A DNA stretch of 64,000 nucleotides, taken from a virus (taxonomy: Duplodnaviria; Heunggongvirae; Uroviricota; Caudoviricetes). Positions 33,307-57,178 of this stretch are shown piece after piece (position 1 is the stretch's first letter; the number at the start of each line of letters is the position of its first letter). Where the stretch lies: IMG/VR virus record IMGVR_UViG_3300050821_009523; one strand, given 5' to 3'. The translations under genes were made by a program, and so were the position numbers. The notes beneath the pieces were generated by a model, which did not search any database, was not told where the DNA came from, and saw only the letters and a list, made by a program, of their open reading frames with translations.

Positions 33307-33492
33307 TCACGTCGGCCTCCGCTTTGGGTCTTCCCACTTGTAGTGCGTCGCCTTGAAGGCGCGGACCCGTATTCGGTGGGGCCGCCGCGCGTCCCGTTGA
33401 TTTTCCGTCTGGCACAGTTTACCGGGCCGCGCGCCGCACTTGGGGCACGCTGTCTCGACTTCGCACTGCCACTGGTAGCGCGGTGTCATCAT
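33307..33492 (-). CDS. Small basic zinc-ribbon-like protein (61 aa)
   Basis: CPKCG...C motif. Start overlaps the PurA-like gene stop. Confidence 0.35.
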   Translation of the reverse strand: MMTPRYQWQCEVETACPKCGARPGKLCQTENQRDARRPHRIRVRAFKATHYKWEDPKRRPT

Positions 33493-34763: not shown

Positions 34764-34970
34764 GAGCAGCGCTCCGCCGGCTTGTGCGTGGCGCGCCACT
34801 CTGCGATGGCCTGCTGCTGCGTGAGGCCGCGCGCCGCAGCGCAGAGGAGCCAAAGGCCAGGGATTTCGTACCGTGCGCCAGCGTGCGTGCTGACGCCAAC
34901 CTTGCCGTCGAAACAATTCAACTCGTAATCCATAGCCTTTGGCCCTCCCGGTGCCGTATGCCGATGTTCG

Positions 34971-42937: not shown

Positions 42938-43336
42938 TTAGGGGGTGCTGCTGCCGGTGGTGCCGTCGATCAGGGCCTGCGCCAGTCGCAGATACCTCGG
43001 CATCGCTCGCCGCACGTTACGGCGGATGTGGGCGCGGGCTGCCGGGCTGGCAAACCGCACAAGCGGCTGATCGCGACGGGAGGAGTTGCAACTGCGGCAC
43101 GCCGTCACGCAGTTCTGGCTCTCGTTGCCGCCGCCGTCCGCGCGTGCCTTCAAGTGGTCGAGCGTCACGTCCCGCGGGTCAGCGCTGTGGAGATCGCGGA
43201 GGCAGTAAACGCAGCAGAATGAGTCGCGTAGGTAGAGCGCTAGCCTGCGCTTGGGGGTGATCCAAGTGCCGGTCGGCTGGTGCGGCGAGCGCGCCAGCTT
43301 GGCTTCGCGGATACCGGTTGTGGTGTGGTTGGCCAT
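42938..43336 (-). CDS. HNH endonuclease (133 aa)
   Basis: VTLDHLKARADGGGNESQNCVTACRSCNSSR (H-N-H with CxxC). Start refined to the internal Met. First gene of the leftward operon. Confidence 0.6.
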   Translation of the reverse strand: MANHTTTGIREAKLARSPHQPTGTWITPKRRLALYLRDSFCCVYCLRDLHSADPRDVTLDHLKARADGGGNESQNCVTACRSCNSSRRDQPLVRFASPAARAHIRRNVRRAMPRYLRLAQALIDGTTGSSTP

Positions 43337-43360
43337 TGGCGCTGTCTCGATCCTGTTGGG

Positions 43361-43390
43361 AGCGTACCATGTCCCGAAAGCTGGTGTCAA
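43361..43390 (-). promoter_or_regulatory. Leftward sigma70-like promoter: -35 TTGACA (43385-43390), 18-nt spacer, -10 TACGCT (43361-43366)
   Basis: Read from the sequence. AT-richer island between divergent operons. Confidence 0.45.
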
Positions 43391-43403
43391 GCCCCCCTGT
43401 AGC

Positions 43404-43431
43404 TTGACATGATATCGGCATGGCCTATATA
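43404..43431 (+). promoter_or_regulatory. Rightward sigma70 consensus-like promoter: -35 TTGACA (43404-43409), 16-nt spacer, -10 TATATA (43426-43431)
   Basis: Read from the sequence. Followed by RBS GGGAAAGGAGGA and ATG 43470. Confidence 0.55.
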
Positions 43432-43469
43432 CTGCCGCGCCAGAGAGGGAAAGGAGGACTGGTAAGCAC

Positions 43470-43655
43470 ATGCCCAATATCTACATACGGCCCGAAACTG
43501 CGGAGGAGCTCGACCGGCTGGCGGCCGCAGTCAACCTGACGAAGGCCGAGACGCTGGCCGAGCTCGTAGAGGTCTATGGCAACGCATTCAGAGATCGCCG
43601 CGTCGTTGGCGAGGTGGCGCGGGCCGAGGCAATGGCCAAGGTGGTGGCGCCATGA
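43470..43655 (+). CDS. Small protein (61 aa), possible ribbon-helix-helix / regulatory
   Basis: First gene after the consensus promoter. Strong RBS. Confidence 0.4.
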   Translation: MPNIYIRPETAEELDRLAAAVNLTKAETLAELVEVYGNAFRDRRVVGEVARAEAMAKVVAP

Positions 43656-44023: not shown

Positions 44024-44376
44024 GCACTGCGCCGAATCGCAACCCTCGCCCCGGCGACCTCCGCGTCTGGTGGGCGCCCCAGATCCCATGCGAACCGTAC
44101 GTCGTGCCGGTAACCAGCGTTGCCGAGGGCGCCAAGTTGCTGTCGGTGTTGGCGGCCTATGATCTATTCCAGTTGCGCATCCACGCAAAACCAGACTACA
44201 GCAACATGGGCGGCTTGCTGGTTTTCGAGGCCGACTGCGACGGCGATGGAAGACCAGGATGGAGCGAATGGACCGACGCGGACGGCTACACGGTTAACGA
44301 AAGCCCGCTGTGCTTTGTGCCGCAAGAAGATTTCTGGCTGCGACAGGGCTCCGGGCCGCTTCCGGAGGACGCATGA
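44020..44376 (+). CDS. Hypothetical protein (118 aa, GTG start)
   Basis: Overlapping start-stop. Protein-like composition. Confidence 0.35.
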   Translation: MSTAPNRNPRPGDLRVWWAPQIPCEPYVVPVTSVAEGAKLLSVLAAYDLFQLRIHAKPDYSNMGGLLVFEADCDGDGRPGWSEWTDADGYTVNESPLCFVPQEDFWLRQGSGPLPEDA

Positions 44377-45251
44377 ACGCCATGCTACAGCCGGACACGC
44401 ACCCCTATGTGGTGGACGCCCTAGAACTCGCAGGTATTCGGCTGGATGGCGGCACGCAACCGCGCGTGGCCTACGACGATAACACCGTCCTGTTTCTCTG
44501 CCACCAGATCCAGGCGAGTTACGACCGAGGAGGCGGCCTTCCGCCCATCGTGGTTTTCTTTGATGGCCGCGATCACTGGCTCGCCGACGGCTTCTACCGC
44601 GTCAAGGCAGCCATGCGCGCCAACCGCACCGCACTGCCGGCCAAGATCCACCCCGGCACGCAGCGCGATGCCATTCTGTATAGTTGCGCCGCCAACCTCC
44701 GGGGCGGCAAGCCGCGTGCCAATGCGGACAAAGCGCGCGCCGTGGACACGCTGCTGCACGACCCGGAATGGCGCAAGTGGAGCAACATGCGCATTGCGGA
44801 GCACTGCGGTGTATACCGTGGCTCTGTCGCCAAGCGTGCGGCCCTGCTTGGAATACCGCGCGCCATAGAACAGAGGCCCGCACCCCAACCGCCAAAGACC
44901 GGCAAGCGCAAGGCCGTCGAGATCGCTTTACGGCGCGACCCATTGGCTACCGGGCGTGCGATCGCTAGTGCGGCCGGTTGCAGCACGGAGCTTGTCCGCG
45001 ACGTCCGCCTAGCACTTGGCATTGCGCCGCCCCCCAACCGGCATGGCGCTAGCCCGAAGGCCCGCAGTGCACAGCTCGACAAGACAGTGCTCTCGATCGA
45101 GACCCATGCGGAGATGCTCGCCGCTTTGGATCTCGCGCCCATGGCCGGCGATCCGCGCTGTGCGCAATGGGTTAACCGCCTCAACAATACGATCGGCTTG
45201 GTGCGAAAGGTGCGCAACGCACTACAAGCCGCGAGCGGGAGGACGGCATGA
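44373..45251 (+). CDS. ParB/Sulfiredoxin-domain (ParB-like nuclease domain) protein (292 aa)
   Basis: GGLPPIVVFFDGRDHWLADGFYRVKAAMRAN resembles the ParB N-terminal box (PI.V...DG.Y.L..G.RR..AA). Confidence 0.55.
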   Translation: MNAMLQPDTHPYVVDALELAGIRLDGGTQPRVAYDDNTVLFLCHQIQASYDRGGGLPPIVVFFDGRDHWLADGFYRVKAAMRANRTALPAKIHPGTQRDAILYSCAANLRGGKPRANADKARAVDTLLHDPEWRKWSNMRIAEHCGVYRGSVAKRAALLGIPRAIEQRPAPQPPKTGKRKAVEIALRRDPLATGRAIASAAGCSTELVRDVRLALGIAPPPNRHGASPKARSAQLDKTVLSIETHAEMLAALDLAPMAGDPRCAQWVNRLNNTIGLVRKVRNALQAASGRTA

Positions 45252-46123
45252 CGGCAGCAGCAACACTCACCCACATCAAGCGGCCAGCGCCAGCGAAAAG
45301 GCCGGCGGCAGACGACACTACCGTATGGCTAAAGATCTGCGACCTGGAAATCGAGCCGCGCGCACAACGCCCCTACAGCGAAAAGCGCGCGCAGCGGTAC
45401 GCCAACGAGTTTGACCCTGACTATGTCGGTGTGCTGCAAATCTCCGAGCGCGAGGATGGCCGCCTGTACATCATCGACGGCCAGCACCGCGTAGGGGCGA
45501 TGCGCATCCTGGGTTGGGATGACCAACGGGCCGAATGCAAGGTGCACCGCGGGCTGACGCTCGCGGACGAGGCGCGGCTTTTCAACCATTACAACGACTT
45601 TGCACGCCCCACACGGTTCGATAACTTCATGGTGCGCATCACGGCGCGCGATCCGGACGCGGTGGCAATCGACGAGATCGTCCGCGGCATCGGCCTGTGC
45701 TGGCAGATGGGCGGCGAAATGGCCACAAAAGAGGGGCGCATCAGTTGCGTCGCGTCACTCGAAGGCGTCTATCGCGGCCTCAATTACAGCGCCAAGACGC
45801 GCCAGCCGATCGTGCTGCGCGATGTCTTGTTGCTCGCCAAGGGCGCTTGGGGCCTACAGCGCGACGCCTTTCGTGGTGAGATCGTCCAGGGGCTCGGCGC
45901 CTTCTTGCTGCGCTACGGCGCCAAGGTGGATAAGGAACACTTGCGCAAGCGGCTGGCAAGCGCGGACGGCGGCGCACTCGGGCTGATCGGCAAAGCCCGC
46001 ACGGTGCGCAGCCTAGAAGGAGGCGCCGTGGCATCAGGTTTCGCCAAGGTGCTGGTGTTGCTGTACAACAAGGGGCTCGGCCAAAACAAGCTGCCCGGCT
46101 GGCAGGGCGAGGAGTTGGGATGA
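45248..46123 (+). CDS. ParB/Srx-fold protein with a DGQHR motif (291 aa)
   Basis: LYIIDGQHRVGAMRILG. Confidence 0.55.
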   Translation: MTAAATLTHIKRPAPAKRPAADDTTVWLKICDLEIEPRAQRPYSEKRAQRYANEFDPDYVGVLQISEREDGRLYIIDGQHRVGAMRILGWDDQRAECKVHRGLTLADEARLFNHYNDFARPTRFDNFMVRITARDPDAVAIDEIVRGIGLCWQMGGEMATKEGRISCVASLEGVYRGLNYSAKTRQPIVLRDVLLLAKGAWGLQRDAFRGEIVQGLGAFLLRYGAKVDKEHLRKRLASADGGALGLIGKARTVRSLEGGAVASGFAKVLVLLYNKGLGQNKLPGWQGEELG

Positions 46124-48009
46124 AGGCAAGCGACGGTGCCAACACCAAGCGCAGCAAAACCTTCCGCGTCGAGGCTGTCGGCGGCGTGCGGTATGCCGAA
46201 GCGACCTTTGACGGCCCGGGCGTCTACGTGGTGCGCGGCCCGAATGGCGGCGGCAAGACGAGCTTTATCCGCGCGATCACCAAGACGCTCGGCGCCGATA
46301 CGCCGGTGGAAGTGCGGGACGGCGAGCCGGCCGGCCGGGTGGTGGGGCCGGGCGTTACGCTCAACATCCGGCAAGTGGCGCGGGCCAGCGGCAAGGCCGA
46401 GGTACAGTTGGCGGACTGCGGCCCGCTGGCGCGGTTGATCGACCCGCCCGTCAAGGGCGTAGAGCCGCGCGCCAGAGAGCGCATTGCGGCGCTATGCGCG
46501 CTTGTAGGGCTGCCGCTGACACAGGGGGCTGCCGAGACCCTATGCACGTATATTGAGGCGCCCACAGGGGCCGCTGGCGGCGGCGGCAAGCCCACCCGCA
46601 CGGTGGACGTTGCGCTGGTGCAATGGCTACTGGCCAGCAAGCCTGCCGACGTGCTGGCAGCGGCCGAGTTGCTGCGCGAGCAGTTGCAGGAGCGCGCGCG
46701 GCAGGCCGAGACAGACCGGGACCGGTGGGCTGGGCTACAACTGGCCGCAAGCGGGGAGATCGACCACGCAGAGGAAGAGATCCATGCGCTTGGCAGCGAC
46801 GGCCTACCGGAGCCGGACGTGGAGGCGGCCGAAGCCAAGGCACAGGTGGCGGCGCTCGCGTACGAGCGCGTTATGGCGAGCGCTGCCGTGCGGCAAGACG
46901 CCGAGTTTCGCATGCGCGCCATCCGCGAGGGGCGTGGCGAGCGGCCAGACATCGATGTCGCAAAGGCGGTGGCGGCCGAGGCAATGGCCGCATTGGAAGA
47001 CCAAGAAGCGCTAACGCAGGAGGCGCGAGACACGGCCGCGCGTCTGACCGGTAAAGCCGACGCGCTACGCACCAAGGCGGACGCCGGGTGGGATGCGCTC
47101 GCGCGCCCCGTGCAGGATTACGAGTGGCACGGTTTGCGCTTCGGCGAGGTCTGGGCCGGCCACCATTCGTCCGGAATGTTGGCCGATGCGGCCGGCAAGT
47201 TGCTCGAATCGGTCGAGCGCATCAAGCGCGCTGCTGGCGAGTGGGCGCTTGCCGAGGCTGCCGCGGTGGCGGCATACAGCGAGGCATCGGATGCTTCTAC
47301 GGCACGCGCGGCTGCGGAAACCAAACTGCTGGCAGCGCATGAGACTGCCGATGCGGCTAACCGTGCTGCGGAGAATGCGGCACAAGCCGCAGCCGTATGG
47401 GACCGCCAGACCGCCGAGATGGACAAACCGGTCAGCGGCGCCACCGAAGACGAGATGCGGGCCGCGAAAGGTGCGCTGGACGGCGCCAATTACGTCGTCA
47501 AGGTGCATGCCGCTAGTGCACGGCTACGGGCCGCGCAGAAAAAAGAGGACGAGACAGTACACTGGCGCGAGACGGCAACCGAGCGCGCGACAGCGCTCCG
47601 GCAAGCCGCGAAAGATGTGCACGTCCGTGTTGCGGAGTGCCTAGCGGCGCGGGGCGTGGATGAGCTGACCGTAACGCAGGGGCGGCTGCATTGGGTGGAC
47701 GCCGCCGGCAAGGGGCCAGATGGCACGGCCGAGACAGCACAGCCCGGCGCGCTGTGGGATTTCGAGACGCGGCTGTCGGATGGCCAGCGCGTGGCAATCG
47801 CCCTGCGCGTTGCGGCGCGTGCACTCGGCAGCGGGCCGGACAACTGGCCGCTACTTTCGTTGGAGCCGCGCTTCTGGCTGGCACTTGACCCGGAGGCGCA
47901 GGAGGAATTCAACCGGCAGGCCGTGACAGCAGGTTTGATCGTACTGACAGAGGAGCCGGCCGAGGGCCAGCCGGGCACGTTCTCCATTACGCGGATTGGA
48001 GGAGGCTAG
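46120..48009 (+). CDS. SMC / Rad50 / SbcC-like ABC ATPase with long coiled-coil (629 aa)
   Basis: Walker A GPNGGGKTS near the N-terminus. About 400 aa Ala/Glu/Arg-rich coiled-coil. C-terminal signature-like LSDGQRVAIAL and Walker B/D-loop LLSLEPRFWLALDPEA. Confidence 0.65.
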   Translation: MKASDGANTKRSKTFRVEAVGGVRYAEATFDGPGVYVVRGPNGGGKTSFIRAITKTLGADTPVEVRDGEPAGRVVGPGVTLNIRQVARASGKAEVQLADCGPLARLIDPPVKGVEPRARERIAALCALVGLPLTQGAAETLCTYIEAPTGAAGGGGKPTRTVDVALVQWLLASKPADVLAAAELLREQLQERARQAETDRDRWAGLQLAASGEIDHAEEEIHALGSDGLPEPDVEAAEAKAQVAALAYERVMASAAVRQDAEFRMRAIREGRGERPDIDVAKAVAAEAMAALEDQEALTQEARDTAARLTGKADALRTKADAGWDALARPVQDYEWHGLRFGEVWAGHHSSGMLADAAGKLLESVERIKRAAGEWALAEAAAVAAYSEASDASTARAAAETKLLAAHETADAANRAAENAAQAAAVWDRQTAEMDKPVSGATEDEMRAAKGALDGANYVVKVHAASARLRAAQKKEDETVHWRETATERATALRQAAKDVHVRVAECLAARGVDELTVTQGRLHWVDAAGKGPDGTAETAQPGALWDFETRLSDGQRVAIALRVAARALGSGPDNWPLLSLEPRFWLALDPEAQEEFNRQAVTAGLIVLTEEPAEGQPGTFSITRIGGG

Positions 48010-48012
48010 GAA

Positions 48013-48339
48013 ATGGACATGGGCATTACGATACGCGGCCACAGCGACGACATCGTATATGTCGAGGGTGACATCACGGAGGAGTTTTATCCCCGCATGC
48101 GGGACGACAAGCCGGCCTATCTAGCTTGTTCAGATGGGACGTTATTGCGTATTACTTATGGCGCCGACGGCAGCGGGTGCTGGCGTATCGTGCCGGTGCG
48201 ATATGGCACTTCGTACTACGCCAAGCGCGAGGCTACGGATGAGGACGAGGACTATTCCGATGTCGTGACGCTGATGGGCAGCATCGCATGGGTTGCGATG
48301 GCCGATCAGTACGCCGTGCCGGCGGGTGGTGCTGCATGA
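48013..48339 (+). CDS. Hypothetical protein (108 aa)
   Basis: RBS GGAGGctaggaaATG. Confidence 0.4.
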   Translation: MDMGITIRGHSDDIVYVEGDITEEFYPRMRDDKPAYLACSDGTLLRITYGADGSGCWRIVPVRYGTSYYAKREATDEDEDYSDVVTLMGSIAWVAMADQYAVPAGGAA

Positions 48340-48458
48340 CGCACGACACAACGGTGGGCCGCATGGGCACCCGCAACCGGCGTGACAACCTGATCCGTGC
48401 TGGCGCGCTTATCGTCGCGGAGATCGAGCGGCTGGACCGCGCCGGCATTTTGGAGTAA
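48336..48458 (+). CDS. Small protein (40 aa) MTHDTTVGRMGTRNRRDNLIRAGALIVAEIERLDRAGILE
   Basis: ATGA overlap with the upstream gene. Own translation. Confidence 0.3.
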   Translation: MTHDTTVGRMGTRNRRDNLIRAGALIVAEIERLDRAGILE

Positions 48459-48460
48459 CC

Positions 48461-48787
48461 ATGGCACTGCATCCAAAATACGACTTGACACTAGAGCAGG
48501 CCGCCAGACTGCTGGCGCGCGGCAGGTCGCTGTCACGCCTTGAGGCGGCGCAGATCGTCGGCGTCGTGGCCGAGCTAGCCAACATCCCCCTGCTGCGCAA
48601 CATCGTGTCGCCGCTCCTTGCGTTCGACAGCCCGTTGATCGATAGGTGCATGGAGGTGACGCTACAGCCCATCGCCACCAAGGCGTACGGCGTGGCATGC
48701 GACATATTCTCGGACAAAGATCAGGATAAATTCCTGGACATCATGGCCGACGTGGCCCACGCCCGCAACGGCGGCGTTGTGGAATGA
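48461..48787 (+). CDS. Hypothetical protein (108 aa)
   Basis: RBS GGAGTAACC. Confidence 0.4.
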   Translation: MALHPKYDLTLEQAARLLARGRSLSRLEAAQIVGVVAELANIPLLRNIVSPLLAFDSPLIDRCMEVTLQPIATKAYGVACDIFSDKDQDKFLDIMADVAHARNGGVVE

Positions 48788-49110
48788 GCGGCAGTGCGCC
48801 CATGACAGGCCCGCAGGTGCGCGCACTGCTGGCGCTGCAAACGGCTTGCGCTGCCAGCGCTAGCGGCCTTGTCTCTCCGCGAGAGATCGCCCATGCGCTG
48901 TGGCCCAACTCACCGGGCTGGGCCAAGCGCTCGTGGCGCAAGGGCAGCAATAACGGTGGTGCGCTGGGCGCCACCATGCCGATGAAGGCCGCCACGTTGC
49001 TGTGGCGGTTGTGGAAACGGCGTCTAGCTGCACCAGACCGACGCGGGCGCTGGCGCCTTACTGATTCTGGCGGCGCGCTAGCCCGGCAACTCATGGAGAA
49101 ACCGCGATGA
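48784..49110 (+). CDS. Hypothetical protein, possible winged-helix DNA-binding (108 aa)
   Basis: ATGA overlap. Basic, helical. Confidence 0.35.
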   Translation: MSGSAPMTGPQVRALLALQTACAASASGLVSPREIAHALWPNSPGWAKRSWRKGSNNGGALGATMPMKAATLLWRLWKRRLAAPDRRGRWRLTDSGGALARQLMEKPR

Positions 49111-49277
49111 CATATTTAAGGCACACACGAGAGGCGCAGCGGGAGTTGGACATAGAAATCGATCTGCTGGCCGCAAAGCTGATCCGCGAGCGGGGTTACG
49201 ACCAATCGGAGGCAATCCACGAGGCGCAGCGGCGCATCCGGGAGCGGCGCGAGCGGTGCGGCTACTGCGTAACTTGA
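49107..49277 (+). CDS. Small protein (56 aa) MTYLRHTREAQRELDIEIDLLAAKLIRERGYDQSEAIHEAQRRIRERRERCGYCVT
   Basis: ATGA overlap with the upstream gene. Own translation. Confidence 0.3.
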   Translation: MTYLRHTREAQRELDIEIDLLAAKLIRERGYDQSEAIHEAQRRIRERRERCGYCVT

Positions 49278-49347
49278 CTTGCGCCAGCCGCCTCGAACTG
49301 GTACACTCCGGCCGTAATAAACCAGACCAACCACGGGAGGAAAGCAG

Positions 49348-49656
49348 ATGGCCAAGAAAGCAACAAACGGAGAGGACGCGCCCAAGAGCGAGCCAGCAGC
49401 CAAGCGCAACAACAAGGCACTCGCCCTGCGGCGCAGGGGGTGGAGTTACACAGAAATTGCCGCGGAGCTCGGTCGCGCGGCCGACAGCACCAAGCCGGTG
49501 ACGCGCGATCGTGCTTGGCAAATGGTTGTGGATGGGCTGCGGGCCGAGGCGGCGGCAGCGGTCGAGCGCGGCGAGCCGGTGGCGGACGAAGCGGCGACGC
49601 TCAAGATCTTGAACGCAAAGGCCCGCAAGCGGGCCGCTGCGCAAGCGGGGGCGTGA
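49348..49656 (+). CDS. HTH DNA-binding protein, sigma-70 region-4 / LuxR-like (102 aa)
   Basis: LALRRRGWSYTEIAAELGRA motif. Preceded by an AT-richer 70-bp gap with a TTGACT hexamer and a GGGAGG RBS. Confidence 0.45.
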   Translation: MAKKATNGEDAPKSEPAAKRNNKALALRRRGWSYTEIAAELGRAADSTKPVTRDRAWQMVVDGLRAEAAAAVERGEPVADEAATLKILNAKARKRAAAQAGA

Positions 49657-49937
49657 TGGCCGCACCGGTAGCGGTGGCATACCCTGCTGGGGCGCCACGA
49701 AAGAAGATCGACCTGCTGCGCGGTTATATGTCAGCGGGCTCTTGGCATGCGGCATTGCACATGGCCGCGCGTTTCCCGCGCCTCGGCGGACACAAGGTCC
49801 GCATTACGCGCGCTTGGGACGCGCTCGCAAACCCACGAATCTACCGCGAGATGGGCCGAGACGTGGACGCGCTCGTAGCGGACGGCATCGCTGCGCTCAA
49901 GGAGCGCTACGGGGATTGCCGGAATGTTACCGTTTGA
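49656..49937 (+). CDS. Hypothetical protein (93 aa)
   Basis: ATGA overlap with the upstream gene. Confidence 0.35.
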   Translation: MAAPVAVAYPAGAPRKKIDLLRGYMSAGSWHAALHMAARFPRLGGHKVRITRAWDALANPRIYREMGRDVDALVADGIAALKERYGDCRNVTV

Positions 49938-50727
49938 AACAGTTACGGCGGCACCGGCGCCGTCCCTAACGCCTGTCGAAAAAATCGGCGACATATGGGT
50001 GAAACGCGACGACCTCTATACCTTTGGTGGCGTCTGCGGCGGAAAGGTGCGCACCTGTGTGGCACTTGCCAGCGGCGCAACAGGGGGCCTTGTGACGGCC
50101 GGGTCCCGCAGCAGTCCGCAGGTCAATATCGTGGCGCATGTGGCCGCCGCCATGGGTTTGCCCGCGTGCGTGCATACACCCGCGGGCAAACTATCGCCAG
50201 AGGTGGAGGCAGCGGTGGCGGCCGGCGCAGCGCTCGTACAGCATACGGCTGGCTACAATAACGTGATAATTGCGCGGGCGCGGGACTGCGCCAAGGTTAG
50301 GGGCTGGTGTCTTATTCCTTTTGGGATGGAGTGCGCGGCGGCAATCGAAAACACTGCTGCACAGGTAGCAAATGTGCCGGCTGGCGTCAAGCGCATCGTC
50401 GTGCCGGTTGGGAGCGGTATGTCGCTCATTGGCATACTCCACGGCTTGCGGAACGCCGGGCGGCTGGTACCGATACTTGGTGTCGTGGTTGGTGCCGATC
50501 CGGCGGCTCGCCTTACGCGGACAGCGGCGTGGTGGCAGTGTGGAGCGCCATTCGAGATCTTTAAGGCACCTGTTCCCTATTCTCGGTCCGTATCCAGGAG
50601 CCTCGGGGCAATAACCCTCGACCCGATTTACGAAGCGAAGTGCGTGGACTATTTGCGTGCAGGCGATCTATTCTGGATTGTCGGTATTAGGCAAACGGCA
50701 CTGGCGCAGGGTGTGGCGGCTGCATGA
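49924..50727 (+). CDS. PLP-dependent enzyme of the ACC deaminase / D-cysteine desulfhydrase family (fold type II), 267 aa
   Basis: IWVKRDDLYTFGGVCGGKVRTCVALASGATGGLVTAGSRSSPQVNIVAHVAAAMGLPACVH aligns with DcyD [64 protein letters not shown]. The PLP Lys is in the GGK context. Confidence 0.65.
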   Translation: MLPFETVTAAPAPSLTPVEKIGDIWVKRDDLYTFGGVCGGKVRTCVALASGATGGLVTAGSRSSPQVNIVAHVAAAMGLPACVHTPAGKLSPEVEAAVAAGAALVQHTAGYNNVIIARARDCAKVRGWCLIPFGMECAAAIENTAAQVANVPAGVKRIVVPVGSGMSLIGILHGLRNAGRLVPILGVVVGADPAARLTRTAAWWQCGAPFEIFKAPVPYSRSVSRSLGAITLDPIYEAKCVDYLRAGDLFWIVGIRQTALAQGVAAA

Positions 50728-52070
50728 CGTTGTTTCTTCCGGGGCTTGAACCCGGCAGCGCCCAGGAGATCGCCGATCGCAAACTCGCTACCCGCTTCGG
50801 AGTTCCGCCCTTCACCGTGCTGGACGCGCGGCAGGGCTATTGGCGGCAACGAAAAAACGCATGGCTGCAACTCGGCATCCAGAGCGAGATAGGACGTGGC
50901 TTCAATCTCCCGAGCCAATCCAGTGATGGTGATCCGGCCATGCGCACTTTTGATACTGAATACAAGGGTGGCGACGCATGGGCTGGCCGCGGCGCATTCT
51001 GGGGCGGCGCTATGGCGGACGGACGCGCGATCTTTCGCAGTGCCGTGGATGGCGCCAACAGAGAGCATCCCGCGACGCAGCGCAAGCGTGCTGGTGCATT
51101 CCACGATCCCGGATCGCGCGCGTCTAATTACACATCAGCATTCGACATTAACGGCCCCGACGGTAGAAGGCGATTGGATAGGGAGGAGATTGCCGCACAG
51201 GGCAGCAGCGGCCTCTCTGGCCTAACGTATGGCGCAGCGCCAGCAGCCGCTTTCGACTACTACCGCGTCAAAGAGGGCGCCAAAGAGAGCAGTACGGTGT
51301 CAGGCACCAGCGTCTTCGACCCTGTACTGTGCGAGCTTTTCTACAGTTGGTTTACGCCGCCCGGCAGCACGGTGCTGGACCCCTTTGCCGGCGGCAGCGT
51401 GCGCGGCATAGTGGCGTCGCGTCTAGGGCGCCGGTACGTTGGCATCGAGCTGCGCGAGGAGCAACTGGACGCAAACCAAGAGCAGGCGTGCGATATCTGC
51501 CGGACAGATGATCCGGTCCCGCGGTGGCTGCTGGGCGATGCGCGGGAGGTGGCGGCGCTCGCCGGCAGCATGGGGCCTTACGGAGCTGTCTTCGGATGCC
51601 CGCCTTATGGGAATCTCGAGCGCTACAGCGACGACGAGCGCGACCTATCTACGCTGGATTGGCCCGAGTTTGCAGCTGAGTACCGCAAGGTGATCGCCGC
51701 ATGTTGTGCACTGTTGGCGCCCAACCGTTTCGCGGCCTTCTGCGTGGGTGACTTTCGGGACAAGGCAGGCGCTTACCGCTGCTTCCCTGAATACACAGCG
51801 GCGTGCTTTGCCGCCGCAGGGCTCACGAAATACAACCATTTTATTCTCGTGACGCCGGCCGGTAGCTTGCCGCTGCGCGTGGGTGCACAGTTCTCTGCTG
51901 GCCGCAAGGCCGGCACCAGCCACCAGCATTTGCTCGTGTTCGTCAAAGGTGATGGCCGTGCGGCTGCCGATGCGTGCGGGCCGGTGGACGTGAATCTCGA
52001 TTGGGTGCGGCAGGAAACAGATGCCGGCGAGACGGAGCCGGAAACCGAGGACGCGCCGTGCACGACCTGA
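50724..52070 (+). CDS. DNA methyltransferase (amino-MTase; N6-adenine or N4-cytosine), 448 aa with an N-terminal extra domain
   Basis: Motif I-like VLDPFAGGSVRG, then motif IV-like FGCPPYGN. Start overlaps the PLP-enzyme stop. Confidence 0.55.
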   Translation: MTLFLPGLEPGSAQEIADRKLATRFGVPPFTVLDARQGYWRQRKNAWLQLGIQSEIGRGFNLPSQSSDGDPAMRTFDTEYKGGDAWAGRGAFWGGAMADGRAIFRSAVDGANREHPATQRKRAGAFHDPGSRASNYTSAFDINGPDGRRRLDREEIAAQGSSGLSGLTYGAAPAAAFDYYRVKEGAKESSTVSGTSVFDPVLCELFYSWFTPPGSTVLDPFAGGSVRGIVASRLGRRYVGIELREEQLDANQEQACDICRTDDPVPRWLLGDAREVAALAGSMGPYGAVFGCPPYGNLERYSDDERDLSTLDWPEFAAEYRKVIAACCALLAPNRFAAFCVGDFRDKAGAYRCFPEYTAACFAAAGLTKYNHFILVTPAGSLPLRVGAQFSAGRKAGTSHQHLLVFVKGDGRAAADACGPVDVNLDWVRQETDAGETEPETEDAPCTT

Positions 52071-52183
52071 CGCCTGTCGAAACCTATGGCGTTGGCGACG
52101 CCCGGTGGTGCGCCAAGCGCGAGGATCTGCCATGCCTGCGAAATGCACCGCAGAGATCAGGCGCATGCAGCACGAGGAGGCTT

Positions 52184-52393
52184 ATGACAACAGCTAGTTG
52201 GGGGCTTGATAGCCATAGCCATGTTGCGTCCTTTCGCGTCAAGGGCCGGCGCCGCGGCAGCTTGGTACCGCGCTGTATCTGCGGGCACACCTACGGCGAG
52301 CACATACCGCTGCCAGGCCATCCCGATGGCGTCGAAGAATGCCAAGCTGCCCGCTGCACATGCGGACAGTGGCGCCCGGAGGTACTGCGGTGA
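52184..52393 (+). CDS. Small Cys/His-rich putative zinc-binding protein (69 aa)
   Basis: RBS AGGAGG, 5 nt, ATG 52184. CICGHTYGEH...CQAARCTCGQW. Confidence 0.4.
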   Translation: MTTASWGLDSHSHVASFRVKGRRRGSLVPRCICGHTYGEHIPLPGHPDGVEECQAARCTCGQWRPEVLR

Positions 52394-53280
52394 GCTTTCC
52401 CCCCGTGCCGCCCCCATTGTGGAGGCCGGACAATCGCGAATATCACGCTGACACAAGCCGCTGGTCGGCCTCGATGCTGCGCACCTTTCGGGAGTCGCCC
52501 GCCATGGCGTACGGGCGCTACATTGCGAAAGACATACCGCCCGAGCCACCAACGCCCAGCCTGATCACTGGCTCGATCGCCAACATCCTACTGCTCGAAC
52601 CGCAGCGCGTGGACGAGCTGATCGCGATTGCGGACTGCAAGACGCGCGGTGCTGCCGCGTTCAAGGCGATCAAGGACGGCGACAGGCTGGCCGTCACGGC
52701 GCAGGAATACGAGGAGGCGCTGGGCATTGCTGCCGCTATCCGGGTGCCGCGCACCAAGGCGGCCGAGGTGGCGCAAGCCCTGCTGATGGGGCCGGGGCAC
52801 AGCGAATATGCACACCGCTGGGATGACGCCAGCGGACTAGCGTGCAAGTGCATGGTTGACAGGTTGGCGCCGCTGCCGTCCGGCGAGCCGGTGCTGGTGG
52901 AGCTAAAAACCACAACCGATCCGCGCGACGAGCCGTTTGCCGCTACCGTTACGCGTTACGGCTACGACGCGCAAGCAGCATTCAACCTGCGCGGCATCCA
53001 GCATGCGCTCGGCGGCTACATGCCGCGCTTCTTTTGGATCGCGGTACGAAACGAGCCGCCGTACGAGGTATATGTCTCGCAACTAAGCGCGGAGTTTTAT
53101 GCGTCTGGTGAGCAGCAAATTGAGCGCGACATCGCCGGCATTGTAAAGTGCCTGCGGGGCGACGCGCCGTGGTGCAGCGGGGAAGAAACTCTGCGCGACG
53201 GCATCAAACCGTTGATGCCGCCCGCATGGCGGCTGCGCGAGCTGTACCGCGACATGCGCCACACGGTTGACAACTTTTAG
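52391..53280 (+). CDS. PD-(D/E)XK exonuclease, YqaJ / lambda-Exo-like (about 296 aa)
   Basis: D...VELKTT catalytic-like block. Paired downstream with a candidate annealing protein. GTG start overlapping the upstream stop. Confidence 0.5.
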
Positions 53281-53302
53281 GACACCGGCACGGGAGGCCA
53301 AA

Positions 53303-54154
53303 ATGTCAAAGCCAAAGCTAGTAACCCAGAAGCCGCAACAAGTCGCGCAGGCGGATGATCCGGTGCAGACAGAAAGGCGCGTCATTACGCCAGCGCAAGC
53401 CCTTGAGTGGCTTTCTCAAAAGGCGCCCAACCGGACGCTATCCAAGCCGCTCGTGGGCCGAATGGCACGCGATATGTCCGCCGGCAGGTGGAAGATTACC
53501 CACCAAGGGATCGCCTTTGGTGGAGATGGGCGCCTCATCGACGGCCAGCACCGCCTCGCGGCGATCGTTGCAGCCGATGTGCCAGTGGAAATGCTTGTCA
53601 CGGTGGGCTTGAACGAGGGTACGCAAGTGCTGATCGATGACCACCGGCGCCGTGCCCTACACGATATCTTGAGAATGCAGATGGGCGAGGCGGTATCGAC
53701 GCTCGATACTGCGGTCCTGCGCTTAGTCCTGTCCGCCCCCGGCGCGCCTGACTACGTAAAGACAAAGGCAGAGTTGGTGCCGGAGTGGCCGCGTTATGTG
53801 GAGGCTGTGCAGTTCGCTACCCGCGCCCACACAGGCCCCGCCGCTGGCATTCGCGTCGCGCCAGTGCTAGCGCCTGTGGCGCGCGCCTACTTGACGCATG
53901 AACATGCGCGGCTGGCGTGCTTCCTGCGGGTGGTGATGACTGGCATACCAGAACAAGTCCCCGACGACACGGCTGCGCTAAAGCTCCACAACTGGCTGTT
54001 GAATAACCGCGCCGCCAAACGAAAGGCCTCTACTGAAAGCCTCTATTTCATGAGCCAGACCGCGCTGCGGCACTTCCTTGACCGCAGAGACATCCGGCAG
54101 TTGCGTGAAACGAGAGATGATCTCTTTCCTGTGCCGAAAGCTGTAAACTCATAA
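53303..54154 (+). CDS. Third ParB/Srx-fold protein with a DGQHR motif (283 aa)
   Basis: GGDGRLIDGQHRLAAIVAADVP. RBS GGGAGG before ATG 53303. Confidence 0.5.
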   Translation: MSKPKLVTQKPQQVAQADDPVQTERRVITPAQALEWLSQKAPNRTLSKPLVGRMARDMSAGRWKITHQGIAFGGDGRLIDGQHRLAAIVAADVPVEMLVTVGLNEGTQVLIDDHRRRALHDILRMQMGEAVSTLDTAVLRLVLSAPGAPDYVKTKAELVPEWPRYVEAVQFATRAHTGPAAGIRVAPVLAPVARAYLTHEHARLACFLRVVMTGIPEQVPDDTAALKLHNWLLNNRAAKRKASTESLYFMSQTALRHFLDRRDIRQLRETRDDLFPVPKAVNS

Positions 54155-54172: not shown

Positions 54173-54859
54173 ATGATGCTGACTCGGCAGTGCCTCGATC
54201 GCACGATGGAGAAGCGCGGCGTATTGCAGCCAACTCTTGCTTGGCATTTTCTCCCGGCGACACGCAAACTAATGCATGTAACTGATGACCGCAAGCCCTT
54301 GCGCAGGGGGAGTGTGCTGCACCACAAATGGCCGCTCGTGGCATGCGAAGCCGGCCTACACGCATCTACCGACCCCTTGATTGCGCTCCAATACTCCCCC
54401 GGCTGCATCATCTGTCGCGTGTTGGTTTGGGGGCAGTATGTAGAGCGTTACGGCAAATTGTGTTGTGAGCACCGTAAACTGTTGGCGTGGGCCGACGCCA
54501 CTGCGGCCTTACGCCTATTCGCCGCCGATTGCGCAGCGCGCATGCTTCGCATCGAGGAAATGGACAACAAGGTAGACAAGCGCGCTTGGGGCGCTGTACG
54601 CGCAGCACGCGCTTTCGCTCGCGGCCGGATCTCTACTGTCCAGTTGGATGCAGCCCACAAAGCTGCCAGATACCCGCCGTTTATCATCGCGGGCATCTCC
54701 ATAGCCGGAAGCGCTGCCGCCGCACCACTAGCCAACCACGCAGCGGCCATATTGTCGGAAAGCCTCTCAGATTGGCACAGGAAACGCCTGCTGCGCTATA
54801 TCAAGGCGCTACTGCCGCCGGATGCGGCGCTGGTATCGCGCCGCCCGCAGAGACGGTGA
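54173..54859 (+). CDS. Hypothetical protein (228 aa)
   Basis: Co-oriented. Protein-like composition. Confidence 0.35.
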   Translation: MMLTRQCLDRTMEKRGVLQPTLAWHFLPATRKLMHVTDDRKPLRRGSVLHHKWPLVACEAGLHASTDPLIALQYSPGCIICRVLVWGQYVERYGKLCCEHRKLLAWADATAALRLFAADCAARMLRIEEMDNKVDKRAWGAVRAARAFARGRISTVQLDAAHKAARYPPFIIAGISIAGSAAAAPLANHAAAILSESLSDWHRKRLLRYIKALLPPDAALVSRRPQRR

Positions 54860-55443: not shown

Positions 55444-56745
55444 ATGGCAGACAAAGGCAAGGACGACGGCACCACGCTGGAAGGCGAGATCATCGACGAG
55501 CAGACTGGCGTCGTGAGCCAGGCGCTTACTTTCGATCCCATCACGCGGGCTGAGATCGACATCCAAATCTCGACCGCCAAGCGCTACCCGCGCGACATCG
55601 CGAAGGTCAAAAAAGACATCATCGAGATGGCGACGCTGGACGAGGAGACGGCCCAAAGCTGCTACTACTCGCTCAAGCGCCGCGATGCTGACGGCAGCGA
55701 CAAGATCATCCAGGGGCCAAGCGTGCGCCTAGCGGAAATCGCGCTTTCCTGCTTCGGTAACATTCGGGCCGGAACACGGTCGCTTGGCGAGACAGAGGAC
55801 GGCCGGTTCGTGCGCGAGTTGGGGATGTGCCATGACGTGGAAAGGAACGTCATGCGTTCGGTAGAGGTAACGCGCCGGATCACAAACAAGCGTGGCCAGC
55901 GCTACGGCGACGACATGATCGGCGTGACGCGTGCAGCAGCTGGCGCCATCGCGTTCCGCAACGCCACTCTCACGGTGGTGCCGCGCGCCATCATCAAGCC
56001 TGCTTATGAGCGCGCCAAGGAAGTAGCTGTCGGCAAAACAAAATCGCTCACTGTCCAGCGCAACCTCGTGATCGAAAAGCTCAAAAAGCTTTCGCCCCTC
56101 ATCACAACCGAGCGTATCCTGGCGGCCCTTGGAAAACCGGACATCGAAGCGATCGGTTGGGCCGAAGTTGAGCATCTGATCGGGTTGGGCACCGCGATCA
56201 AGGAAGGGATGCAGCCCGTCGAGGAGGCATTCCCCGCGCCGCAGGCGGCCGGCACTGGCGTTGCCGAGGTGCTGGGCGATAAGCCGCAGGCGCCGGCAGC
56301 ACCACCCAAGGTTAGCGAGGGCGCACAGCAGGCCGTAGCGCCGCAGCAGGCGCCAACGGCACCCACCACGGCACCAGAGCCGCCCCCTGCCGCCACGGCC
56401 CCGCCAGCGGCCCCACAGCAGCCGCAGGCGCCAGCCCCGGTGCAGGCAGCCGTCCAGTTGCCAGATCAGCAGCCACAGCCTGCGCCAGCCGCCCCCGCGC
56501 TGGCACCTACGCCAGAGCCAGATGCGCCGCCCAAGGCCGCAAGCCCGGACTACCTGACGGGCGGCGAGATCACCACCATCCGGCGAATCGCGGAAAAGTC
56601 GCGCGTCAAGCTGGTGCGCCTCGCTGAAATCGTGGCGGAAGTGACGAGCAAAACGGCCAGCGAGACGGAGCCCAATACATGGCAGATCACGCCGCAGCAG
56701 GGACAAGAGATCGCACGGCGCGTGAAGGCCGAGGGGGCGAAATGA
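55444..56745 (+). CDS. Candidate single-strand annealing protein (RecT/Redbeta/ERF-like partner of the YqaJ-like exonuclease) with Pro/Ala/Gln-rich linker and C-terminal domain; assignment uncertain
   Basis: Position next to the exonuclease. 433 aa. No firm motif match by eye. Confidence 0.3.
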   Translation: MADKGKDDGTTLEGEIIDEQTGVVSQALTFDPITRAEIDIQISTAKRYPRDIAKVKKDIIEMATLDEETAQSCYYSLKRRDADGSDKIIQGPSVRLAEIALSCFGNIRAGTRSLGETEDGRFVRELGMCHDVERNVMRSVEVTRRITNKRGQRYGDDMIGVTRAAAGAIAFRNATLTVVPRAIIKPAYERAKEVAVGKTKSLTVQRNLVIEKLKKLSPLITTERILAALGKPDIEAIGWAEVEHLIGLGTAIKEGMQPVEEAFPAPQAAGTGVAEVLGDKPQAPAAPPKVSEGAQQAVAPQQAPTAPTTAPEPPPAATAPPAAPQQPQAPAPVQAAVQLPDQQPQPAPAAPALAPTPEPDAPPKAASPDYLTGGEITTIRRIAEKSRVKLVRLAEIVAEVTSKTASETEPNTWQITPQQGQEIARRVKAEGAK

Positions 56746-56912
56746 GCTCCTTTGTCTTCTACGTCTTTGCGATCGCTGCCGCTCTCCTGCTCGATATCGC
56801 ACTCGGTTGTACTACGCGCGCCGCCGCTGCCGGCGCCTGCTTGATCTCGCTGTGCGCCTTTGCCGACTTACAAGTAGACCGCATCGTGGTGGCCATAAGG
56901 GGGCGCGAATGA
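56742..56912 (+). CDS. Small membrane protein (56 aa)
   Basis: ATGA overlap. Hydrophobic FVFYVFAIAAALLLDIALG. Confidence 0.3.
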   Translation: MSSFVFYVFAIAAALLLDIALGCTTRAAAAGACLISLCAFADLQVDRIVVAIRGRE

Positions 56913-57178
56913 CAACCTCATCTGACCAGTGGGCAAACGACGTAAAGGCTGCTATCCGCGCGGGGTGGAGTTACGACATGGCCGCGGCACCGCTGCTTGA
57001 GATGGTATTAGTTGCCATCCAGCGAAAGGGGTACGCCGGCTATCCGCGCGTGGTGGCTGCCTACCGCGCTAGCGGTGGCGGTTGGCAGAAAGAAACCGTC
57101 GGTGCGCCACTCCGCGGGTTTACCTACGCCTGGCGCCCATTGCTACAGCCACCACCGCTGCCGGAGCCACAGCCATGA
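56909..57178 (+). CDS. Hypothetical protein (89 aa)
   Basis: ATGA overlap. Confidence 0.3.
   Translation: MTTSSDQWANDVKAAIRAGWSYDMAAAPLLEMVLVAIQRKGYAGYPRVVAAYRASGGGWQKETVGAPLRGFTYAWRPLLQPPPLPEPQP

Follow-up and report, generated by a model that had tools for sequence, protein, structure and literature searches.

To our knowledge, all amino-acid and polyamine hypermodifications known from phage DNA start from 5-hydroxymethyl-pyrimidines. In phages M6 and ViI, gp52 and gp226, respectively, were shown experimentally to be pyridoxal phosphate (PLP)-dependent decarboxylases of DNA-attached amino acids (Lee et al. 2021, PMC8989533); both were modelled on the structure 1j0a, and K36 was proposed as the aldimine lysine (PMC8989533). 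In Synechococcus phage S-B43 a methyltransferase-fold enzyme, CmoX, installs a non-methyl group with the aid of its partner CmoA, after which the product is tailored further; CmoX is a C5-cytosine methyltransferase homologue that uses the carboxy-S-adenosylmethionine made by CmoA, and ParBc proteins are common neighbours (PMC12783734). ParB proteins are also able to activate phage DNA-modifying enzymes (PMC13229309), and one family of phage methyltransferases is known from the ParB-terminase (ParB-Tls) locus (PMC4738411; PMC6536676). Here we describe a 9.8-kb stretch (positions 44,373 to 54,154) of a 64,000-nucleotide (nt) segment of a tailed-phage genome (IMG/VR record IMGVR_UViG_3300050821_009523; Caudoviricetes), the whole of which we call the window; within this stretch a compact PLP enzyme gene immediately precedes a member of that methyltransferase family.

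The original prediction had proposed that six genes of this stretch, encoding three ParB-like proteins, an SMC/Rad50-like ATPase, the PLP enzyme and an amino-methyltransferase, might make up one Dnd-like or ParB-SMC system. We argue instead that the stretch forms the front part of the phage's early operon and is a mosaic of separately inherited cassettes, in which the PLP enzyme and the methyltransferase would work as a functional pair in DNA modification; to this joint claim, drawn from comparative sequence analysis, we assign a probability of roughly 0.55. What the original prediction missed is that these two genes are, judging by their distribution, a truly coupled pair that is often encoded as one nested polypeptide.

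Results

The PLP enzyme and the methyltransferase form a coupled pair

49656..49937, plus strand: 93-amino-acid protein of phrog_18237 (unknown function; 3.2e-13)
49924..50727, plus strand: compact fold-type-II PLP enzyme of 267 amino acids, of the 1-aminocyclopropane-1-carboxylate (ACC) deaminase/D-cysteine desulfhydrase lineage (PALP 5.9e-14; phrog_3650 7.3e-40; phrog_7093 1e-15)
50044-50046, plus strand: codon of the predicted Schiff-base lysine K41 of the PLP enzyme, whose other motifs (from motif search and alignment) are KRDD, the phosphate loop VGSGMS and DPIYEAK
50724..52070, plus strand: amino-methyltransferase-fold enzyme of 448 amino acids, from the phage ParB-methyltransferase family but without a ParB domain (PF01555, 45.3 bits against a cut-off of 26.7; phrog_12517 1e-90; phrog_498 5e-65)
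51378-51398 and 51597-51608, plus strand: motif I (DPFAGGS) and motif IV (CPPY) of the methyltransferase, from a motif scan that also gave motif II (GIELRE)

Two sets of viral loci were compared, namely 44 IMG/VR loci with homologues of the PLP enzyme (49-65% identity, falling into 32 clusters at 80% identity) and the 80 best viral loci for the methyltransferase family. A methyltransferase-family homologue stands beside the PLP sequence in 42 of the 44 loci, and in 28 of these the PLP domain is nested in the methyltransferase, the two sharing a single open reading frame (ORF) of 700-900 codons. In this nested layout the PLP domain is preceded by residues 1 to ~260 of the methyltransferase, with the VPPF motif and motifs I and II, and followed by residues ~262-425, with motifs III and IV and xCPPY; the insertion point is the junction of the circular permutation that relates the family to beta-class enzymes such as TTHA0409. 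No methyltransferase of the family lies within 8 kb of the PLP homologues in L005-L007 (the P0047 lineage, 18 contigs), L031 and L033; in L005-L007 the gene immediately upstream of the homologue encodes topoisomerase I, and the phage also has DNA polymerase A and HU, while L031 and L033 are large contigs.

The same pairing was recovered from cultured phages by tblastn: gp70 of Pseudanabaena phage Pam4 (829 amino acids) carries the PLP domain inside a methyltransferase protein, and in Mycobacterium phage Vincenzo a ParB-methyltransferase gene overlaps the PLP gene. In gp7 of Erythrobacter phage ZS04 (812 amino acids) a ParB domain, the N-terminal half of the methyltransferase, a more divergent PLP insert and the C-terminal half of the methyltransferase follow one another. 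ORF1 of R6L (830 amino acids), in its published annotation merely a CcrM-like methylase, gives a split methyltransferase match like that of ZS04 gp7, and its insert is only probably a PLP domain. In cultured phages the genes of the module are annotated only as "methylase", "PLP enzyme", "carboxylate deaminase" or "nucleoside deaminase". The full-text literature searched gave no account of a PLP domain within or next to this methyltransferase family; widespread and often in one polypeptide as it is, the pairing thus appears to be undescribed there.

Two further arrangements deserve mention. In viral contigs of 90-178 kb, which come from samples whose ENA accessions are near that of the window, a modification island (L157:3156-8551 and L158:3030-8551) comprises, in this order, a methyltransferase of the family, a fusion of the PLP enzyme with a GNAT acetyltransferase (418 amino acids), a second N6/N4 methyltransferase, a Mom homologue and thymidylate synthase (ThyA); by analogy, the PLP-GNAT arrangement recalls the decarboxylate/lyase-then-acetylate logic of PaMx11. 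In ZS04, a PAPS-reductase-like pseudogene or feature of the DndC-type PP-loop kind (L155:1-939) lies 1.4 kb upstream of the nested ParB-methyltransferase-PLP gene and the terminase, and the ParB-terminase locus of this phage therefore stacks several modification functions.

The 93-amino-acid protein has tblastn homologues near the methyltransferase in 28 of the 80 methyltransferase loci and in about 12 of the 44 PLP loci, a distribution that suggests it travels with the methyltransferase family rather than with the PLP gene.

The PLP enzyme is related to decarboxylases that act on DNA

The AlphaFold2 (AF2) model of the PLP enzyme has a predicted local distance difference test (pLDDT) score of 92, and Foldseek places its fold closest to D-cysteine desulfhydrase (4d8t) and to 1j0a, an ACC-deaminase homologue; in a profile alignment K41 falls on the PLP lysine of the DcyD motif GGNKLRK. 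Even so, the enzyme scores far below the curated cut-offs (29 against 289 bits for TIGR01275, 16.5 against 392 for TIGR01274 and 21.7 against 429 for PRK03910) and is about 60 amino acids shorter than ACC deaminase and D-cysteine desulfhydrase proteins. A strict D-cysteine desulfhydrase or ACC deaminase identity was rejected on these cut-offs, and the earlier suggestion that the enzyme might release sulfide could not be upheld, given that its characterised relative is a decarboxylase of DNA-bound amino acids. That relative, M6 gp52, belongs to phrog_7093 (2e-159), the family matched by the window enzyme at 1e-15, and a direct hhalign comparison of the two (80.6%, E 1.3e-5, 225 columns) places K41 on K36 of gp52. 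The other family of the window enzyme, phrog_3650, is common to Vincenzo gp2, the Pam4 insert and gp41 of Glutamicibacter phage Montesquieu, and the last of these adjoins a clade-2 aGPT-Pplase, a kinase and a pyrimidine hydroxymethylase, that is, a thymidine-hypermodification cluster. More than 1000 homologues of the PLP enzyme were found in metagenomes.

The methyltransferase is a circular permutation of the beta-class N6/N4 enzymes, with PDB 2zie aligning in permuted order and CcrM aligning too, and its motif IV begins with cysteine rather than with D, N or S. It has more than 7300 homologues, many with a fused ParBc domain (PF02195), and is 48-79% identical to family members. Among the homologues inspected (S/T/G/A)CPPY is family-wide and motif I is strictly conserved. 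Every family member inspected also has a second PPF motif, N-terminal in position (RF-VPPFSVLDARQGYW..RK..W..LGI.SE.GR; 50802-50813 in the window), between the ParB domain and the Rossmann core. Biochemical work on precisely this family did not turn up in the literature searched.

Fifteen candidate catalytic residues of the PLP site, K41 among them, are invariant in the 44 loci, in nested and separate forms alike. Together with the conserved motif I and the retained xCPPY of the methyltransferase, this makes both halves of the pair look catalytically competent. The gene pairing, the fusions, the retention of catalytic residues and the homology to DNA-acting PLP decarboxylases are thus established at the level of sequence comparison. 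The original prediction had named DNA modification as a possible theme of this region, and as such it is plausible.

The surrounding genes are probably inherited separately

44373..45251, plus strand: ParB_A, a Spo0J-like ParB with N-terminal domain and helix-turn-helix (HTH) region (phrog_1033 "ParB-like partition protein" 1.9e-12; PDB 1vz0)
45248..46123, plus strand: ParB_B, a DUF6551/DGQHR ParB-superfamily protein (PF20188 2.7e-20; DGQHR at nt 45476-45490)
46120..48009, plus strand: Rad50/SMC-fold ABC ATPase of 629 amino acids with an antiparallel coiled coil (Walker A, signature motif, AF2 model, Foldseek)
46237-46263, 47773-47790 and 47851-47868, plus strand: Walker A (GPNGGGKTS), signature (LSDGQR) and atypical Walker B (LLSLEP) of the ATPase, from a motif scan
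48013-48339, 48461-48787, 48784-49110, 49107-49277 and 49348-49656, plus strand: run of unnamed small ORFs (48013..49656) with no Pfam match and one weak PHROG match
52339..53280, plus strand: PD-(D/E)XK exonuclease, DUF3799/exonuclease VIII-like (PF12684 9.2e-16; phrog_412 2.9e-41); the metagenome gene call begins at 52504
53303..54154, plus strand (alternative start 53267): ParB_L, a DGQHR-motif protein (phrog_5931, unknown function, 1.6e-43; DGQHR at nt 53540-53554)

All six proteins named in the original prediction are encoded by collinear plus-strand ORFs, and their domain identities were borne out by profile matches, motifs and AF2/Foldseek, the ParB fold of ParB_L weakly so. The window has a GC content of about 63%; head, tail and tape-measure genes occupy 4-31 kb and are followed by a minus-strand block, after which a long plus-strand early operon runs from ~43.5 kb onward to reach genes for a DnaB-type helicase and a replication initiator. 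The window matches a 97-kb contig from an ENA metagenome, and when 50,697 phage records were searched with the region by megablast, zero nucleotide-level relatives were returned. Four ATGA start/stop overlaps (between the upstream gene and ParB_A, ParB_A and ParB_B, ParB_B and the ATPase, and PLP enzyme and methyltransferase) mark predicted translational coupling of those gene pairs.

Four cassettes can be proposed. The ParB pair, Spo0J-like ParB_A with DUF6551/DGQHR ParB_B, would be one and is probably a DNA-binding or clamp device; the hook-less Rad50/SMC-fold ATPase would be another, probably assisting recombination-dependent replication; the 93-amino-acid protein, the PLP enzyme and the methyltransferase-fold enzyme would form a DNA-modification set; and the DUF3799 exonuclease with the third ParB-like protein, ParB_L, would close the series. 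Of these, the DNA-modification set is, on the comparative evidence, the only demonstrably coupled unit. When the ParB-like proteins, the ATPase and the exonuclease were searched by tblastn, they gave zero matches in the 44 PLP loci and a single one in the 80 methyltransferase loci, a ParB_L match in L087 about 5 kb from the methyltransferase. Because co-occurrence of the ParB and ATPase genes with the PLP and methyltransferase genes is almost nil in these 44 and 80 loci, the region reads as a mosaic and not as the single system that had been suggested.

The closest relative of the operon, L163, is 80% identical in the ATPase, 89% in the 93-amino-acid protein and 79% in the methyltransferase, and it has collinear homologues (52-79% identity) of the small ORFs at 48013..49656. 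Where the window carries the 807-nt PLP gene, L163 has 247 nt holding an unrelated 83-codon ORF (L163:3235-3487; window 49915-50721), which by eye resembles a window ORF ending at 57178 (~56912-57178; GYPRVVAAYR...YAWRPLLxPPPLP); it looks as though one cassette had been swapped for another right in front of the methyltransferase.

The ATPase belongs to an orphan-looking, recombination-associated family

The ATPase alone gave weak Pfam matches to AAA_23 and SMC_N, whereas 46 of 51 family members match AAA_23. Its AF2 model (pLDDT 89) comprises a head and a long antiparallel coiled coil with its apex at about residues 346-351, for which the best Foldseek matches are Rad50 (7zr1, the top match, E 1e-9), JetC, LmuB, MukB and RecN. 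A HMMER search of 1.84 billion representatives found 427 relatives, mostly of 470-530 amino acids (~490 typical), and by alignment the window protein carries a coiled-coil segment of about 110 amino acids in excess of the family. The family conserves GxNGxGKTS, RLSxGQR, the D-loop ALD and a C-terminal TEEP, while Walker B is degenerate, with the consensus VVPLDG in place of a canonical hhhhDE; ATP hydrolysis may be slow or completed by a partner. No CxxC zinc hook is present in the 629-amino-acid protein or in the family alignment, and no Mre11/SbcD metallophosphoesterase was found in neighbouring window ORFs or in Pfam-annotated contexts of homologues. Searches for relatives elsewhere yielded little: tblastn against phages gave no homologue, a word-indexed protein search one weak match, and a single-protein pattern scan, a bacterial-genome scan and a metagenome scan almost nothing.

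Exact look-ups of the HMMER matches gave six independent contexts, and the gene orders were as follows.

L064: RecE-like exonuclease, RecT, then ATPase
L053: exonuclease and RecT genes as in L064, then 727- and 91-codon ORFs, then ATPase
L061: DUF3799 exonuclease, RecT-like protein, ATPase, then a weak "replisome organizer" match
L052: ATPase, exonuclease, then RecT
L062: ATPase, RNase T-like protein, then DnaD-like loader
L059: ATPase (closest homologue), then a 600-amino-acid ParB (ParB_N/HTH_ParB)
L060: short contig with uninformative neighbours

RecE/RecT-type genes thus adjoin or lie near the ATPase homologue in four of the six independent contexts, and in the window a DUF3799 exonuclease sits 4 kb downstream of the ATPase; a ParB adjoins it in only one of the six other contexts (L059). 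A recombination-associated, SbcC-like function would fit these family contexts best, and better than a ParB-SMC or DndD reading. The fallback offered in the original prediction, an SbcC-like recombination function beside an exonuclease/annealase pair, is of this kind: the association with recombination is supported, plain SbcC is not, as neither an SbcD/Mre11 neighbour nor a CxxC was found, and of the supposed pair the DUF3799 exonuclease is there whereas the annealase could not be confirmed. The 433-amino-acid candidate for the latter (55444-56745) matches only phrog_3657 (unknown function) and has no Pfam, NCBIfam or PDB match.

The ParB-like proteins show no link to the modification genes

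ParB_A aligns over residues 7-223 with Spo0J of T. thermophilus (PDB 1vz0, E 2.3e-4) and has DGFYR (nt 44586-44600) in place of the canonical ParB GERR. As had been predicted, two of the three proteins carry DGQHR, namely ParB_B and ParB_L, so that the GERRxR CTP-binding box is absent from all three. ParB_B scores 24.6 bits against the NCBIfam DGQHR domain TIGR03187, under its cut-off of 58.85. A single-protein scan of viral contigs gave no homologue of ParB_B; 66 phage records, mostly of Mycobacterium and Gordonia phages, have one at 32-36% identity, placed in the early lytic operon directly after repressor/Cro-type genes. In the M. abscessus prophage phiGD20-1 the early operon opens with gp44, a GERR-type ParB, and then gp45, a DUF6551 protein, which is the order of ParB_A and ParB_B, and the ATPase does not follow. 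No ParA-like gene was found among the called genes of the window, and no parS search was made.

ParB_L has phrog_5931 as its sole PHROG/Pfam-type family match and gave no match in a PDB sequence search; profile comparison by hhalign, though weak (70% to the ParB N domain and 46% to ParB_B), places it probably in the ParB/Srx superfamily. None of the other window genes was present in eight viral loci with ParB_L homologues, and by this measure ParB_L is an independent gene. As for a trans-acting ParB partner that might serve the ParB-less methyltransferase, this candidate was rejected, in that a hidden Markov model (HMM) of the ParB domain normally fused to this methyltransferase matches no window ORF. 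By analogy with the activating ParB proteins cited above it is possible that the window proteins act in trans in DNA modification, a role to which comparative genomics lends no support.

Neighbouring genes

33489-34916, minus strand: adenylosuccinate-synthetase-like gene (PF00709 3.5e-48; phrog_1211, PurZ-type "2-aminooxy adenylosuccinate synthetase"; GDEGKG P-loop)
54173-54859, plus strand: 228-amino-acid protein (DUF7666 match just under cut-off; weak Imm5-like match)
42938-43477, minus strand: HNH endonuclease, adjoining the upstream end of the early operon in opposite orientation
2070-3263, minus strand: transposase-like gene (phrog_4285) near the left end of the window

The best phage relatives of the adenylosuccinate-synthetase-like gene, from Mycobacterium cluster C, are 36% identical and annotated as PurA-like or PurZ-like; its neighbours are phrog_2971 and the kinase-like phrog_3043. 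Were it a true PurZ, the phage DNA would carry 2-aminoadenine, which would alter what the amino-methyltransferase meets. The 228-amino-acid protein has a 42% identical homologue (L053:11108-11743) in a locus that also holds a member of the SMC-like ATPase family.

Discussion

The role of the modification set is most likely a two-step post-replicative hypermodification of DNA bases. As to the substrate, the transferred group and the order of steps, we infer the following scheme. The methyltransferase-fold enzyme would bind phage DNA after replication, flip out a base and alkylate its exocyclic amino group using S-adenosylmethionine (SAM). The PLP enzyme would then form a Schiff base between K41 and the free alpha-amino-acid group of the adduct and tailor it, most likely by decarboxylation, as M6 gp52 and ViI gp226 do with thymidine-attached amino acids. 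The only amino-acid-bearing group that SAM has to offer is 3-amino-3-carboxypropyl, which methyltransferase-fold enzymes are known to transfer to RNA (Tyw2). The simplest chemistry would therefore be transfer of this group from SAM followed by decarboxylation to an aminopropyl base. Alternatively, the base may be alanylated by way of a PLP-aminoacrylate, or the PLP enzyme may act on a small molecule, SAM or S-adenosylhomocysteine (SAH). We tentatively propose that the pair may carry out a new type of hypermodification on the exocyclic amine of adenine or cytosine, built from the amino-acid part of SAM (aminocarboxypropyl, then aminopropyl) or from PLP-aminoacrylate (an alanyl base), which would bypass the 5-hydroxymethyl-pyrimidine route; this is possible rather than probable, and the aminocarboxypropyl/aminopropyl chemistry specifically is, if anything, a little more doubtful. 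By extension, the large (S/T/G/A)CPPY "ParB-methyltransferase" family of phages may not consist of simple methyltransferases.

Several observations weigh against this interpretation. The chief difficulty is that methyltransferases without a linked PLP gene look, by sequence, catalytically identical to those with one: no column of the catalytic core separates the two groups, and variable-region columns alone differ. If the core is indeed identical, transfer of more than methyl would have to hold for the whole family; failing that, the PLP enzyme would have some other job and no amino-acid adduct to act on. Among the 80 best methyltransferase loci only three have a clear and four a weak PLP gene (~4-9%), the closest operon relative, though collinear, lacks it, and three PLP lineages have no methyltransferase within 8 kb. 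Given that so few methyltransferase loci have a PLP gene whereas 42 of 44 PLP loci have the methyltransferase, the link is asymmetric, and the PLP enzyme is best described, from these counts, as a facultative add-on that is almost never seen without this methyltransferase. On our reading of the fold topology, moreover, the insertion sits at the N-terminal end of strand 3, on the side of a Rossmann fold that lies opposite to the cofactor site. As regards the mosaic, the ATPase contexts are few (n=6).

These difficulties lend some weight to the view that the methyltransferase is an ordinary N6-methyladenine (m6A)/N4-methylcytosine (m4C) enzyme and that the PLP enzyme acts on a linked small molecule, by breaking down SAH or processing SAM-derived aminobutyrate or ACC, and so speeds genome methylation. 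The unchanged methyltransferase core and the absence of the PLP gene from L163 are what one would then expect, the PLP fold is nearest to lyases of free amino acids (D-cysteine desulfhydrase and ACC deaminase), and the DPIYEAK motif resembles what we take to be the YE motif of ACC deaminases. We nevertheless consider this explanation unlikely, for the enzyme falls far under all curated cut-offs for these lyases, its nearest characterised phage relative works on DNA-bound amino acids, and by-product removal explains the PLP-GNAT fusion and the nested architecture poorly; moreover, we know of no fold-type-II enzyme that performs gamma-elimination on SAH.

Much more improbable is the single Dnd/Ssp-like or ParB-SMC system for modification, partition or anti-restriction that the original prediction had assembled from all six genes. 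The genes are collinear, on one strand and partly coupled translationally, a ParB does follow the closest ATPase homologue in L059, and the literature knows both of ParB proteins that activate phage DNA-modifying enzymes (PMC13229309) and of ParBc proteins that co-occur with phage methyltransferases (PMC12783734; PMC6536676). Yet co-occurrence in the 44 and 80 loci is almost zero, the exception being the distant ParB_L match in L087, the neighbours of the ATPase are mostly RecE/RecT-type, and the ParB-like proteins of the window are unlike the ParB domain normally fused to this methyltransferase. PADLOC gave no DndD, Dnd or Ssp match, and Wadjet, Lamassu and other defence systems were likewise rejected, since the only hits were weak P-loop matches (LmuB, PtuA and mad3); no PP-loop enzyme was found among the ORFs scanned, and the PLP enzyme has fold type II, whereas DndA is a cysteine desulfurase of NifS-like fold. 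A smaller unit, in which the ParB pair and the ATPase would serve to segregate or compact a plasmid-like prophage or replicating phage DNA, apart from recombination and modification, also seems improbable, if not quite to the same degree. ParB_A is Spo0J-like down to its HTH region, the ATGA overlaps join the ParB_A, ParB_B and ATPase genes, and L059 pairs the ATPase with a ParB_N/HTH_ParB protein; against this stand the want of a ParA-like gene among those called (parS sites were not searched for), DGFYR instead of the CTP-binding GERR in ParB_A, mycobacteriophage ParB pairs that occur without the ATPase, and ATPases without a ParB in five of the six other contexts.

If the hypermodification reading is true, a methyltransferase-fold enzyme with built-in PLP tailoring would represent a second, compact, single-polypeptide route to hypermodified DNA. 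The module is present in cultivable phages (Pam4, ZS04, probably R6L, and the Mycobacterium phages Vincenzo and AlanGrant), and natural pairs with and without the PLP gene exist, as in the window and L163. Such a route would bear on restriction evasion, on the reading of sequencing-based modification calls and possibly on the site-specific amine labelling of DNA. There is a negative lesson as well: a Dnd-like system is not implied where ParB-like, SMC-like and PLP genes happen to adjoin one another in the early operon of a phage.

Comparison with known systems

With Dnd/Ssp systems the window shares a DGQHR ParB-superfamily protein (compare DndB), an SMC-like ATPase (compare DndD) and a PLP enzyme (compare DndA). 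It is, as had been predicted, not a canonical Dnd or Ssp system: neither a DndC/SspD PP-loop enzyme nor DndE was found in Pfam, PHROG, NCBIfam and PADLOC scans of the main ORFs or in Pfam scans of the called genes within 10 kb on either side, and the PLP enzyme is of fold type II (PALP; 4d8t, 1j0a) rather than a NifS-like/IscS-type desulfurase of fold type I. The ATPase has an ABC head split by an antiparallel coiled coil like Rad50/SbcC, RecN, JetC and LmuB, but differs from Rad50/SbcC in the typical length of its family members (~490 amino acids), in lacking a CxxC hook or hinge and an Mre11/SbcD partner, and in its degenerate Walker B. Stand-alone phage ParB-like proteins near DNA-modifying enzymes are also found among the 5mYOX-ParB activators of thymine dioxygenases (PMC13229309); the window, by contrast, has no dioxygenase, and its ParB-like proteins show no conserved linkage to modification genes.

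The likeness is closer where the modification enzymes themselves are concerned. The window methyltransferase shares its core (phrog_498 and phrog_12517; VPPF and xCPPY) with the ParB-Tls fusions, from which it differs in having no ParB domain, in lying in the early/replication operon rather than next to the terminase and in being preceded by a PLP gene. In S-B43, too, a methyltransferase-fold enzyme installs more than a methyl group together with a partner, but the window enzyme is an amino-methyltransferase homologue and its partner is PLP-dependent. Of the enzymes that characterise thymidine hypermodification, neither an aGPT-Pplase nor a 5-hydroxymethyldeoxyuridine (5-hmdU) DNA kinase nor a dUMP hydroxymethylase was found within 10 kb on either side or among the other large window ORFs scanned; the place of these partners is taken by an amino-methyltransferase-fold enzyme, often with the PLP domain nested in it. 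The target base and substituent would accordingly differ from those of the thymidine systems, with the exocyclic amine of adenine or cytosine, rather than C5 of thymine, as the probable site. What the window does have in common with M6 gp52 and ViI gp226 is a compact phage enzyme of about 270 amino acids with the ACC-deaminase-like PLP fold type II, related to them at the profile level.

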